DNA of 64,000 nt, from positions 120,590 through 184,589 of the forward strand of contig JAXHTF010000001.1 of the NCBI GenBank assembly GCA_034211275.1. The letters run 5' to 3'. The translations under genes were made by a program, and so were the position numbers. Source of the stretch: Acidobacteriota bacterium. GTDB lineage: Bacteria; Acidobacteriota; Thermoanaerobaculia; Multivoradales; JAHZIX01. Shown one piece after another: positions 16,801 to 23,745 of the stretch. The notes below the pieces were generated by a model that worked only from the letters and a program-made list of their open reading frames with translations, was not told the DNA's origin and made no database searches. The stretch's first letter is position 1, and each line of letters opens with the position of its first letter.

Positions 16801-19800
16801 CTCGACGCCTTCCCGCGCACCGGCAGCGGCAAGGTGGACCGCAACGCCCTGCCGTCCCCGGACGCCAGCCAGGTCAAGGCCCAGGGCTTCGAGCCCCCCA
16901 CCACCCCCCTGGAACGCCACCTGGAGGCCCATTGGTGCCGCGTCCTGGGAGTCTCTCGGGTGGGCCGCAACGAGCGCTTCTTCGACCTCGGCGGCAACTC
17001 CATCCAGGCGGCCATCGTGGTCAACGCGCTGCAGCAGGAGCTGGGGGAGATCCTCCACGTCACCGCTCTCTTCCAGGCCCAGACCCTGCGGGACCTGGTG
17101 GCCTTCCTGGAAACCCACTACCCCGAGGGCACCCGCAAGCTGCGCCTGCGGCTGGGGGAGTCGGCGGCGCCGCTGCCCGCCGCCCCCGGCCAGGAAGAGG
17201 GCGTCGGCCCCTTCGACTTCCTCGACCTGCGGCGGATGGTGGCCGAAGCTCACGAGGCCCGAAAGACCCAAGAAACCAGTGAAGCCGAGCCCAAAGCGAA
17301 GCTGCCGCCGGCGATCTTCATCCTCTCGCCGCCGCGCTCCGGCTCTACCCTGCTGCGGGTGATGCTCGCCGGCCACTCCCGGCTGTTCTCGCCGCCGGAG
17401 CTCGAATTGCTCGGCTACCGCACCCTGGGGAAGCGCCGGAACGACCTGTCGGGGGCCCACCGCTTCGCCCGGGAAGGCCTGCTGCGGGCGGTGATGGAGC
17501 TCGAAGACTGTGACGCCGAGGAGGCCATTCGCCGCCTCGGCGAGCTGGAGGACGCAGACCGCCCGGTGGCCGACGCCTATGCCTACCTGCAGGAGCGCAG
17601 CGGCCGCACGGTGGTGGACAAGACCTCTACCTACGCCCTCGACCCCACCGCCCTGGCGCGGGCGGAGGAGCTCTTCGACGGCGCCTACTACATTCAGCTG
17701 GTGCGCCACCCCTGCGCCACCGTGCGCTCCTACGTCGACGTGCGGCTGGAGCAATTCCTGCGCTTCGACAACCCCTACACGCCGCGCCAGCAGGCGGAGC
17801 TGCTGTGGACCGTGGGGCAGCAGAATATCCGCCGCTTCTTCGCCCAGCTGCCTCCGGAGCGCCACCGCACCCTGCGCTTCGAGGACCTGCTGGCGGATCC
17901 CGCGGGGGTGATGCGGGACCTGTGTCGCTGGCTGGGCCTCACGCCGGAGGAGGCGATGCTCGAGCCCTACCAGGGCGAGCGCATGACCGACGGCCTCTAC
18001 GCCCAATCCCGGATGCACGGCGACCCCAAATTCCACCAGCACGACGGCATCGATGCGCGGGCGGCGGCCAGCGGCACCGACCGCTACCCCCTGAAGAGCC
18101 TGGCGCCGGTGACCCGGGACCTGGCGGCCGAGCTCGGCTATCCCTCCGAGGGAGACACCGAGGGCCTCATCCCCGCCGCCGCGGGGGAAGTGCAGCTCTC
18201 CTTCGCCCAGGAGCGGCTGTGGCTGATCCACCAGATCGAGCCCGACAGCCCCGCCTACCACATCCCCGCCGCCGTCAGCCTGCGCGGTGAGCTGGACGAG
18301 GCGGCGCTGGAGCGGGCCTTGGCGGCGCTCCTCCGGCGCCACGCCGTGCTGCGCACCGCCTACGGCACCCGCGAGGGCCGTCCCCGGGCGATGGTGCTGC
18401 CCAACCCCAATCCGCGGCTGCGGCGGCTGGATCTCACCGAAGCCTCCAGCTCCGATTCGCCTCTCCCGGCGGACCGCGATGGACTGATCGCCGAACTCGC
18501 CCGGCGCGAGGCCCTGGAGCTCTTCGACCTGGAGAGCCCGCCGCTGCTGCGCGCCACCCTGCTCCGCCTCGGCGCCGATGAGTCGCTGCTGCTGGTCACC
18601 CTGCACCACATCGTCGCCGATGGCTGGTCCCTGGGAGTGCTGGTGGGCGACCTGGCGGCGCTCTACGAGGCCGAGCGCCTGGGGGCACCGTCCCCCCTCG
18701 GCGCTCTGCCGGTGCAATTCTCCGACTACGCCGCCTGGCAGCGGCGCCGGTTGGAAGCTTCGGAGGACAAGGCCCGGGAAGGAGAGCCCAGCGGCCTGGA
18801 GAAGCTGCTCGACTATTGGCGCGGCGAGCTCGGGCACCGGGAGCTGATTCTCGAGCTGCCCACCGACCATCCGCGGCCCCTGGAACCCTCCGCCGAGGGC
18901 GGCGAGGCCTCCCTCACCGTGGCACCGGAAGTGGTTCAAGGCCTGGTGCAGCACGGCCGGGAGCACGGCGCCACCCTCTTCATGGTGGTGGCGGCGGCGC
19001 TCCAGACCCTGCTCCACCGCCTCAGCCAGCAGGACGAGGTGGCCATCGGCACCGCCGTCGCCAACCGTCCGCGGGCGGAGCTGGAGCCCCTCATCGGCTG
19101 CTTCGTCAACCTGCTGGTGCTCGCCCAGGACACTCCCGGCGGCCGCTCCTTCGAGGAGCTCCTGGCGGCGGTGAGCCAATCCGTGGTGGGCGCCTTCGAG
19201 CACCAGGAGCTACCCTTCGAGCGCCTGGTGGAGGCGCTGGACCCACAGCGGGATCTGGGCCGCCACCCCCTCTTCCAGGTGCTGCTGCTGTTCCAGAACG
19301 CGCCGGTGCCGCGCATCGAGCTGCCGGGGCTGGTGCTGAGCTCGGTGGACGTGCCCGCGGGCACCTCGCCCTACGACCTCATCGTCACCCTGGCGGAGCA
19401 GCAGGGCGGCCTGGGGGGAACCCTCAAATACCGCCGCGACCTCTTCGACGCCGCCACCGGCGAGCGCTGGGCGCGAGCCTTCGAGACCTTGTTGGGCGGC
19501 CTCGCCAAGGGCTTCGAGCCACGCCTCGACACCCTGCCGGTGCTCACCGCCGCCGAGCGCCACCAGCTGGTCCACGGCTGGAACGCCACGGACCGACCTC
19601 TCGCCGCCCTCGAGGAGTCGGTGAGCCGGCGCTTCCGCCGAACCTGTGCGGACCGGAGCGAAGCGCCGGCGCTGGTGGCCGGCGAGGAGAGCCTTTCCTA
19701 CGGCCAGCTGGGGCGCCGGGTGGCGCGCCTTTCCCGGCGGTTGCGCCAGGCTGGGTTCGATGCTGGGGTCGGTGCCGGCGTCGGCCCGGAGCAGCCGGTG

Positions 19801-22800: not shown

Positions 22801-23745
22801 GACCAGCAATTCGAGAGCCGCCGGGTGCGCCGCTCGCTGATCACCCTGACGGAGGTGGTGCAACGCTACGGCGTCGAGCGCATCGACCTGCTCAAGATCG
22901 ACGTCGAGCGCAGCGAGATGCACGTCATGCGCGGCCTCGACGACGAGCTCTGGCCGCGGGTGCGCCAGGTGGTGGCGGAGGTCCACGGCGACGACCTGCG
23001 GGACCAATGCACCGACTTCCTGGAGGCCCACGGCTTCGAGGTGGCCATCGACGATCACGTGGTGGTGGAAGACGACCATCCGTCGCCGGTGCGGGTGTAC
23101 ATGATCTACGCCCGGCGCCCGGAGGACGGCGGCATCCAGCCGTCGGCCCCTCTTGCTGCCAGCACCGCTGCTGCCGACACCGCCGCGGATTCCGCCGACA
23201 CCGCCTTCGATACCGCGACGCTGCGCCAGGTCCTTGCCCGGGAGCTGCCGGAGGCCATGGTGCCGGCGCGCATCGTCGAGCTCTCCTCCCTGCCCCGCAC
23301 TCCCAACGGCAAGCTCGACCGCCGAGCGCTGGCGGAGCGCGCCGGCGAGACCGCTGCCCAGGAAGTCCCAGAGGCCGCCTCGGACCAGCCCTACGCACCG
23401 CCGGGCAACGACACGGAACGGGTCATCGCCGAGGTTTTCGAGCAGATCCTCGATCTCGAATCCGTCGGCGTGGACGACAACTTTTTCGACCTGGGGGGCA
23501 ATTCGGTGCTCATCGTCGAGGCCAACAGCCGCCTGCGCACCGCCCTCGGCCGCCCCATCTCGGTGGTCAAGATGTTCCGCCATCCGACGGTGCGGTCGCT
23601 GGCGGGCTTCCTGGCGAACGAGGAGCAGGATGCTCCCGCCGTCGACGAGAGCCGCGCCCGCGCCCAGGCCCGACTCGCCTCGCTGCGCCGCCGTAGCGGC
23701 GGACCGCCACGACGCCCCAACCCCGAGCCTTCGGAGGGAGCATGA
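13822..23745 (+). CDS. NRPS: docking-C-A-T-ST-C-A(interrupted by LLM monooxygenase and FkbM-type methyltransferase)-T
   Basis: C domains: [10 protein letters not shown] with HHIVSDGWS, and LSFAQERLW with [10 protein letters not shown] domains: [12 protein letters not shown] twice. PCPs: [24 protein letters not shown]. Embedded sulfotransferase and the two A-domain inserts are listed below. Confidence 0.9.
17290..18130 (+). other. CurM/olefin-synthase-type sulfotransferase (ST) domain embedded between a PCP and a C domain
   Basis: [36 protein letters not shown] (5'-PSB loop PRSGST), [12 protein letters not shown] and [15 protein letters not shown]. This matches the conserved signature of the ACP-ST-TE offloading ST domains. 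Confidence 0.7.
20071..20100 (+). repeat. 2 x 15-nt tandem repeat (agctggcccgagctg) encoding [10 protein letters not shown]
   Basis: Read directly in the A-domain linker of NRPS 2. Confidence 0.85.
20470..21560 (+). other. luciferase-like monooxygenase (LLM/MOx) domain inserted between A4 (FDISVLELL) and A5 (NMYGPTETT) of the last A domain
   Basis: [95 protein letters not shown]-barrel LLM signature. Insert position is analogous to MtaG/MelG MOx domains. Confidence 0.7.
21832..21867 (+). repeat. 2 x 18-nt near-perfect tandem repeat encoding [12 protein letters not shown] inside the A domain
   Basis: gtgcctatcggccaagca / gtgcccatcggccaagcg. Confidence 0.85.
22290..23110 (+). other. FkbM-family methyltransferase domain inserted after A8 ([13 protein letters not shown]) and before A9/A10 ([11 protein letters not shown])
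   Basis: [17 protein letters not shown] matches the FkbM-family motif (DVGANxG). About 270-aa insert. Confidence 0.6.

Follow-up and report, generated by a model that had tools for sequence, protein, structure and literature searches.

Monooxygenase and methyltransferase inserts in adenylation domains

Interrupted adenylation (A) domains of nonribosomal peptide synthetases (NRPSs) have been catalogued in seven families, none of which combines a monooxygenase (MOx) with a methyltransferase (M) domain; the doubly interrupted ones carry two M domains (Lundy et al. 2020, PMC8341866). We report here an A domain with one insert of each kind, predicted to make alpha-methoxyglycine, in a hybrid NRPS/polyketide synthase (PKS) line encoded on a 64,000-nucleotide stretch of an Acidobacteriota bacterium (GenBank assembly GCA_034211275.1, contig JAXHTF010000001.1, positions 120,590 to 184,589 of the forward strand); this whole stretch is referred to as the window. 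The domain is the second A domain of gene 2 of the line, with a MOx between core motifs A4 and A5 (the a4-a5 site) and an FkbM-family M domain between A8 and A9 (the a8-a9 site). It does not match the catalogued families 5 and 7, as these have two M domains (back to back at a8-a9, or at a2-a3 and a6-a7), whereas the window has one M domain and an oxygenase at a4-a5.

MtaG and MelG of the myxothiazol and melithiazol pathways have the architecture C-A(MOx)-PCP-TE (condensation, adenylation, peptidyl carrier protein and thioesterase domains), with the MOx inside a glycine A domain at a4-a5, and C-alpha hydroxylation is the proposed reaction (PMC11411415, PMC10204066, PMC11342130). The window module shares the glycine A domain and the position of the MOx, a likeness drawn from the family model and the published descriptions. 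However, MtaG and MelG are terminal modules that have a TE and no methyltransferase, and their hemiaminal goes on to a terminal amide, whereas the window module is internal, includes an O-methyltransferase insert and is followed by a ketosynthase (KS).

SolF, from the solanimycin pathway of Dickeya solani, has an internal glycine module with a flavin monooxygenase embedded at a8-a9, and the alpha-hydroxyglycine is kept in solanimycin B while the chain is elongated (PMC10204066). It resembles the window in being an internal glycine module with an embedded monooxygenase, but the oxygenase is at a8-a9, where the window has its M domain, rather than at a4-a5; there is no methyltransferase, and the hydroxyl is left free. 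The corallorazine-type (crz-like) NRPSs of Serratia and Pseudomonas, described by bioinformatics for 38 pathways, have a glycine A2 domain with a MOx and a type I N-methyltransferase, and truncated or oxidised products formed by chain cleavage are predicted by their authors (PMC11342130, 2024). Here too a MOx and a methyltransferase are embedded in one glycine A domain, but the methyltransferase is of the N-methylating type I, and the module is terminal with a reductase and no KS after it. Both an internal alpha-hydroxyglycine module (SolF) and a MOx together with a methyltransferase in one glycine A domain (crz-like) are thus already known.

Type II M domains occupy the a8-a9 site, measure 290 ± 13 aa, and are recognised by the S-adenosylmethionine (SAM) motif (V/I)(F/I/V)DVGx(N/H)xG(L/M)F(S/T)L and five further motifs; the representatives KtzH and ColG have been shown biochemically to O-methylate PCP-bound serine (PMC8341866). 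These belong to family 2a (KtzH module 4 of the kutznerides; ColG), which has in common with the window a type II M domain at a8-a9 with fitting motifs and size. The family 2a A domains activate Ser or Thr and the side-chain hydroxyl is methylated, whereas the window A domain has a glycine code and a second insert (the MOx), and its M domain falls in a separate clade. In the open-access literature we found neither a paper on a MOx with a type II M domain, nor one on alpha-methoxyglycine in a nonribosomal peptide, nor a characterised pathway with this exact architecture.

Organization of the doubly interrupted module

Genes 1 to 3 form a co-directional and tightly spaced hybrid NRPS/PKS line (G+C content at third codon positions, GC3, 0.89-0.91) in a window of ~70% G+C. 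An exact look-up of the 3307-aa gene 2 protein gave no record. The named relatives of a ferrochelatase belong to Acidobacteriota/Thermoanaerobaculia metagenome-assembled genomes (66-70% identity), and the host is accordingly a probable uncultured acidobacterium. Further domains are acyltransferase (AT), acyl carrier protein (ACP), sulfotransferase (ST), ketoreductase (KR) and dehydratase (DH).

2447-13741, + strand: gene 1, 3764 aa; starter C-A(Gly)-PCP-KS-AT-(640 aa, no family match)-ACP-C-A(Gly)-PCP, from Pfam and the glycine codes
13822-23745, + strand: gene 2, NRPS of 3307 aa; C-A(Gly)-PCP-ST-C-A(Gly; MOx; M)-PCP, GC3 0.91, from Pfam and NCBIfam
23742-30626, + strand: gene 3, 2294 aa; KS-AT(malonyl)-KR-DH-ACP-C, from Pfam and motif scan

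The doubly interrupted module itself is made up as follows.

18190-19500, + strand: C domain, with C1 (SFAQERLW) at 18199-18222 and HHIVADG at 18604-18624; Pfam match in two stretches, outer boundaries approximate
19600-20300, + strand: N-terminal part of the A domain, with A1 at 19693-19710, A3 at 20137-20169 and A4 at 20266-20280; specificity residues D, I and L
~20317-20475, + strand: linker rich in Q, R and G before the MOx
20476-21492, + strand: insert 1, MOx (TIGR04020, PF00296)
21589-22221, + strand: middle part of the A domain, with A5 at 21763-21783, A6 at 21931-21972, A7 at 22045-22059 and A8 at 22099-22143, from motif scan
22327-23121, + strand: insert 2, type II M domain (PF05050), with the 13-aa SAM motif at 22453-22491, E2905 in FEPMP, and a KIDVE motif
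23209-23331, + strand: C-terminal part of the A domain, with A9 at 23245-23265 and A10 (NGKLDR), with the catalytic Lys, at 23305-23322
23404-23601, + strand: PCP, with FFDLGGNSV at 23482-23508 and Ser3228 at 23503-23505; Pfam PP-binding match in two stretches, and motif scan

The inserts are evident from the spacing of the core motifs. A4 (SFDIS, aa 2149) and A5 (NMYGPTE, aa 2648) are 498 aa apart, whereas the other, uninterrupted A domain of gene 2 has 90 aa between them, and A8 (aa 2760) and A9 (LPEAMVP, aa 3142) are separated by 382 aa rather than 85 aa, with A10 following at aa 3162. These gaps correspond to inserts of ~408 aa and ~297 aa. Motifs A1 to A10, the HHIVADG of the C domain and the PCP serine are all intact in the motif scan. 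An earlier note made from the letters of the window had placed the A domain at 19600-23330, with a MOx at A4-A5 and an FkbM-family methyltransferase at A8-A9, and this is borne out by Pfam, NCBIfam and the motif positions: the core motifs run from nt 19693 (A1) to nt 23322 (end of A10). The second insert is also present as described, although the motif gaps give ~297 aa and not the ~270 aa it had been credited with.

The specificity-conferring (Stachelhaus) code of the doubly interrupted A domain is DILQLGMVWK, corresponding to glycine, the substrate expected from the resemblance to MtaG; the pocket was aligned to a GrsA fragment, for which the procedure recovered the established code DAWTIAAIC. 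Genes 1 and 2 (2447-23745) encode four A domains, every one glycine-coded (DILQLGLIWK twice, DILQLGLVWK and DILQLGMVWK), and the hybrid expected from the line, acyl-Gly-ketide-Gly-Gly-Gly*-ketide, would be unusually rich in glycine.

The module is internal, as had been proposed, with its PCP followed by the KS of gene 3, whose start at 23742 overlaps the gene 2 stop codon. This KS (23769-24893) is intact, with the active-site Cys (VQTACSTS), HGTGT and NVGH all present; the gene 3 AT is of the malonyl type (GHSLG/HAFH), and the terminal C domain has HHLITDG. Gene 3 also follows the doubly interrupted module in the Acidobacteria orthologue (L001; see below). Gene 1 is predicted to supply the acyl chain and gene 3 to receive the chain from the doubly interrupted module. 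No TE was identified by Pfam and motif scan of the cluster genes.

The monooxygenase insert

The first insert matches NCBIfam TIGR04020, the MupA/Atu3671 luciferase-like monooxygenases, over aa 2219-2557 (407.6 bits, cut-off 244), and Pfam Bac_luciferase (PF00296) over aa 2237-2531 (E 4e-41). By these family models it is a flavin mononucleotide (FMN)-dependent luciferase-like monooxygenase of the MupA/Atu3671 family. Its closest solved relative is the monooxygenase domain of PuwE (PDB 6KET, E 3.3e-101), whose proposed role in puwainaphycin biosynthesis is to 2-hydroxylate an acyl chain on its carrier, alpha to the thioester (PMC4219810). Unlike the window insert, that domain lies between PKS and NRPS modules, outside any A domain, and acts on a beta-amino fatty acyl chain.

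The methyltransferase insert

The second insert matches Pfam Methyltransf_21/FkbM (PF05050) over aa 2880-3073, with 60 bits against a cut-off of 22.7 and coverage of profile positions 1-172 of 173. Compared with the six published type II motifs, i, ii, v and vi are exact, iii differs by a single conservative substitution (D for E/P), and the 12-aa motif iv matches FT(Y/F)YPxx(S/T)x(L/M)SG only in part; the length of ~297 aa is within the type II range. We regard it on these motifs as a type II O-methylating M domain of the KtzH/ColG type. The 11-aa FkbM motif of the earlier note is at aa 2878-2888 (nt 22453-22485), but the view that it marks an unusual alternative to the common O-methyltransferase at A8-A9 has to be given up, as motifs and size are those of KtzH and ColG and the type II SAM motif DVGx(N/H)xG is itself the FkbM-like one. 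An N-methyltransferase like that of the crz-like clusters was considered and rejected on the motifs and the Pfam family.

The SAM-binding residues, whose loss the earlier note had taken as the sign of an inactive insert, are intact. In an alignment of 23 diverse homologues, by which the columns are numbered (D45, G47, A48, G51, E70), the D, both G residues and the A of DVGANxG, the E of FEP, and the K, D and E of LKxDxE are invariant, and the N is conserved in at least 90%. An AlphaFold2 model from this alignment has a mean predicted confidence (pLDDT) of 92.3 and a class I SAM methyltransferase fold, and the top Foldseek matches are class I methyltransferases (CbiT 3E05, E 4e-8; COMT). These matches include no solved FkbM-family structure and give no clue to the substrate, and a PDB sequence search with the insert gave no significant match.

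Doubly interrupted glycine A domains form a widespread family

At least 65 of the 120 best-ranking database relatives of the A(MOx)(M)-PCP region carry the two inserts at the sites seen in the window, so the double insert is not a chance pattern. Pooling of proteins and loci gives 76 distinct MOx-associated M domains (i.e. doubly interrupted A domains), from Acidobacteriota, Gemmatimonadota, Cyanobacteria (many of them lichen Nostoc), Chloroflexota, Bacteroidota and Myxococcota; the claim that no A domain with both inserts was known is therefore incorrect as far as the databases are concerned. Most of these relatives are C-A(MOx)(M)-PCP proteins of ~1800 aa, and their JGI and NCBI annotation names both insert domains. 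Scanning of GTDB species genomes with M-insert patterns yielded at least 506 confirmed relatives, with and without a MOx taken together, and the best M-insert match among those listed has 48% identity. The closest relative is on the contig of an Acidobacteria metagenome-assembled genome (L001), which is 5'-incomplete and syntenic with the window (68% identity).

Wherever a code could be assigned, the doubly interrupted A domains are specific for glycine, with the pattern DILQxGxxW(K) in 65 of 65 proteins from the top 120 and in 16 of 16 fetched loci. In the related loci the M type accompanied by a MOx is confined to glycine A domains (those 16), whereas the 37 M domains of this type without a MOx are in A domains with codes for Ser (15), Thr (11), or Gln-, Asn- or Glu-like or unassigned codes (11), and glycine is absent; no glycine A domain with an M insert but without a MOx is seen among these loci. 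This pairing suggests that the M domain mostly accompanies a hydroxyl, which on glycine only the MOx can supply.

A midpoint-rooted neighbour-joining tree resolves the 76 MOx-associated and 40 other M domains as two pure clades. The nearest neighbour is of the same class for 115 of the 116 domains as computed, and for all 116 if one locus (L084) is relabelled; L084 was first classed as MOx-associated because the motif scan missed an A3 motif, and the tree corrects the label. A single residue, G2949 in motif iv, separates the two classes. Judged by sites, codes and tree, the doubly interrupted glycine A domains are a widespread, monophyletic and uncharacterised family.

Both inserts are under purifying selection. 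Compared with L001, the A core has 69-75% identity and a ratio of nonsynonymous to synonymous substitutions (dN/dS) of 0.26-0.40, and the inserts are at least as constrained (MOx, 77% identity, dN/dS 0.27; M domain, 80% identity, dN/dS 0.24); the ratios are rough, given 68% identity between the proteins compared and the strong codon bias of the genome.

Genes downstream of doubly interrupted modules

Of the loci in which the downstream domain was readable (all but four), the window and seven further distinct ones (the doubtfully classified L084 among them) have a next gene that starts with KS-AT. In one protein (P0038) the KS is fused to the doubly interrupted module, and most such modules with a readable downstream context lead into a KS. 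Internal placement before a KS is thus the usual arrangement for this module type, rather than the exception that the earlier note had supposed. In Nostoc the module is followed by KS-AT-ACP-C-A, and in one locus (L068) the downstream PKS contains an ST.

In Cyanosarcina radialis (L005, 15423-23190) the module is followed by a set of methoxymalonyl-ACP genes (3-hydroxyacyl-CoA dehydrogenase, ACP, acyl-CoA dehydrogenase and a HAD/FkbH-like protein) and then by KS-AT-ACP-R, where R is a reductase domain. This layout predicts two adjacent methoxy-bearing carbons and reductive release.

Glycine modules with a MOx alone include a recurrent stand-alone protein of ~2200 aa, A-PCP-C-A(MOx)-PCP, without a TE (L085, 8001-14822; L087, 8001-14624). 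It is followed by acyl-CoA dehydrogenase and phosphopantetheinyl transferase genes, with genes for an HpaB-like protein, a short-chain dehydrogenase/reductase and GAF sensor kinases nearby, and looks like part of a small conserved system in which collapse of the hemiaminal may free a primary amide.

Predicted chemistry of the module

We consider it fairly probable (about 0.6) that the module builds alpha-methoxyglycine on the assembly line and passes it to a PKS module. The A domain would load glycine onto its own PCP, and the C domain would acylate the PCP-bound glycine with the upstream chain, predicted to be acyl-Gly-ketide-Gly-Gly. The FMN-dependent MOx would then act on the tethered thioester, adding a hydroxyl at the alpha-carbon of its glycine in the way put forward for MtaG and MelG, and the embedded type II M domain would O-methylate the new hydroxyl with SAM, giving a stable N,O-acetal, N-acyl-alpha-methoxyglycyl-S-PCP. 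The gene 3 KS would extend this unit with malonate, with processing by the KR and DH and release by the terminal C domain. We infer both reactions, their order, and that hydroxylation follows N-acylation, as a free alpha-hydroxyglycyl amine would lose ammonia. The N,O-acetal would resist the hemiaminal collapse that gives the primary amide in MtaG.

Alpha-hydroxylation followed by O-methylation, already put forward in the earlier note, appears the most plausible chemistry because M domains of a hydroxyl-methylating type are paired with glycine only when a MOx is present, and the separate clade of these M domains strengthens it.

Several observations weigh against this interpretation. Some M domains without a MOx belong to A domains whose codes are Gln-, Asn- or Glu-like, so hydroxyl groups may not be the only acceptors of this M type, unless those residues are hydroxylated in trans. 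The doubly interrupted module of a Corallococcus locus (L002) is terminal, with a discrete TE, so protection to allow elongation is not the whole rationale. Nor is O-methylation strictly needed for elongation, as glycine modules with a monooxygenase alone are also internal in SolF and in a Tumebacillus locus (L086); the idea that MOx-only modules are always terminal, with O-methylation as the licence to elongate, was rejected for this reason. A CurM-type ST just upstream in gene 2 has no obvious substrate and could act on the same alpha-hydroxyl, and no flavin reductase gene is evident in the cluster. The links to MtaG, MelG and KtzH are through family models and published motifs, and every member of the doubly interrupted family is known from sequence alone.

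One alternative is that the methoxy group is installed but serves as a transient leaving group or mask, with methanol lost after extension and KR/DH processing to give an N-acylimine or enamide, or with the acetal carbon used in ring closure by the terminal C domain (e.g. to a pyrrolinone-type ring), such that the product lacks alpha-methoxyglycine. N,O-acetals are N-acyliminium precursors in general chemistry, the KR and DH of gene 3 lead to a terminal C domain whose HHLITDG is intact, with no TE, and the varied downstream processing (KS-AT-ACP-C-A in Nostoc, KS-AT-ACP-R in Cyanosarcina, the ST of L068) suggests a reactive handle. We nonetheless think this unlikely, as no sequence feature points to an eliminating enzyme and nothing follows the terminal Corallococcus version, with its discrete TE, that could exploit a leaving group. 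Methoxy N-acyl aminals that are stable also occur naturally, in the pederin family, in which a glycine-derived carbon bears OCH3 beside the amide nitrogen and is PKS-extended. The pederin-family pathways are trans-AT PKS systems with stand-alone tailoring enzymes, and we know of no embedded MOx or M domain in them.

The remaining possibilities depart further from the alpha-methoxyglycine assignment. Cleavage as in MtaG, in which hemiaminal collapse frees the upstream lipo-tri-glycine as a primary amide and the glyoxylyl thioester remaining on the PCP, possibly as its methylated hydrate, is either discarded or used to prime the PKS, is the sole outcome proposed in the literature for MOx inserts of the a4-a5 type, and release by cleavage would suit the stand-alone TE-less proteins of L085 and L087. 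It seems improbable for the window module, as it leaves unexplained both an O-methyltransferase that is conserved, under purifying selection and found on glycine only with a MOx, and the conserved KS-AT gene directly downstream, and since alpha-hydroxyglycine survives elongation in SolF. We give the least credence to an M domain that is silent or that methylates another acceptor (the amide or amine nitrogen, giving a sarcosine-like residue, or a carbon), with the MOx alone providing alpha-hydroxyglycine or another oxidation, e.g. N-hydroxylation followed by O-methylation to an N-methoxy amide. The MOx and N-methyltransferase of the crz-like glycine A domains offer a precedent, and the A domains that house some type II-like M domains have Gln-, Asn- or Glu-like codes; however, the motifs are those of the O-methylating type II and not the N-methylating types I or V, the named member of the Pfam family (FkbM) is an O-methyltransferase, and the SAM-binding residues are invariant across the 23 diverse members. 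The strict pairing of MOx and glycine implies, in addition, that the methyltransferase depends on the oxidation, and MupA-family luciferase-like monooxygenases are associated with C-alpha hydroxylation of thioesters.

Other features of the NRPS/PKS line and the window

The ST in gene 2 (17308-17943, + strand; aa 1163-1374) is an "activating" sulfotransferase of the CurM type, located after the PCP of the preceding glycine module and before the C domain that follows. Its matches in the PDB include 4GBM (E 2.6e-64) and 4GOX (E 4.5e-61), and its PRSGST loop for binding 3'-phosphoadenosine 5'-phosphosulfate is intact. The usual context of such domains is ACP-ST-TE, in decarboxylative chain release. 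The glycyl intermediate here has no obvious hydroxyl, and the alpha-hydroxyglycyl unit of the next module could be its substrate. The ST was rejected as a regular partner of doubly interrupted modules, as among the 87 fetched loci only L068 has one, in its downstream PKS.

Gene 1 contains a segment of ~640 aa between its AT and ACP (8114-10030, + strand; aa 1890-2528) with no Pfam or NCBIfam family and a marginal PDB match. It is rich in Ala, Leu, Glu, Gly and Arg, includes an (SSGTV)3-like repeat, and may be either a degenerate KR region or a new domain. In gene 3 (27171-30626, + strand; aa 1144-2294) the KR (aa 1144-1342) precedes the DH (aa 1357-1664), so that the usual DH-KR order is turned round, and the line ends in the C domain with intact HHLITDG, without a TE or R domain; this order is kept in L001. 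Directly after gene 3 and before an ABC transporter is a leftwards-oriented gene (30643-32028, - strand) for a 461-aa protein with no family match, which has the same position and orientation in L001 and may belong to the cluster.

A small biosynthetic operon separate from the NRPS/PKS genes is present on the opposite strand (42002-47125), and resembles the srsABC-type alkylresorcinol/alkylquinone clusters.

45965-47125, - strand: type III PKS
45316-45906, - strand: methyltransferase of the ICMT family
43155-45026, - strand: AMP-binding ligase
42002-43162, - strand: FAD-dependent monooxygenase

The segment at ~40000-42000 has a G+C content of 0.56, compared with ~0.70 elsewhere, and contains open reading frames at 39902-40567 and 41110-41991 that lack the high-GC3 signature and have no Pfam match. 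It may be foreign or non-coding DNA; an Rfam search of the window, this stretch included, identified no RNA family.

Implications

The double insert, on the comparisons above, is a combination of two known insert types that is widespread in uncultured bacteria, and the family is a good genome-mining lead. A broader proposal, which we regard as evenly poised, is that A4(MOx)A5-A8(M type II)A9 domains are a distinct interrupted A-domain family of single origin, present in several phyla and making alpha-methoxyglycine, which is not reported as a building block of any characterised NRPS. In most members this unit would go on to a PKS, and many products of uncultured Acidobacteriota, Gemmatimonadota and lichen cyanobionts would thereby contain N-acyl-N,O-acetals (pederin-like aminals) or masked N-acyliminium electrophiles.

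If correct, this would add one more family to the seven catalogued and would provide a simple rule for mining: where a glycine code is combined with a luciferase-like monooxygenase insert at a4-a5 and a type II M insert at a8-a9, the product is expected to contain an N,O-acetal. Such a rule would cover many orphan clusters, as the samples taken already include 76 distinct examples. The A(MOx)(M)-PCP unit would also offer a small system in which to study how a single PCP reaches three active sites, and a possible part for engineering methoxy-aminal groups into peptides. For the assembly lines themselves, two tailoring domains nested in one A domain would convert alpha-hydroxyglycine, which normally destroys itself, into an alpha-methoxy unit that is either stable or reactive by design.

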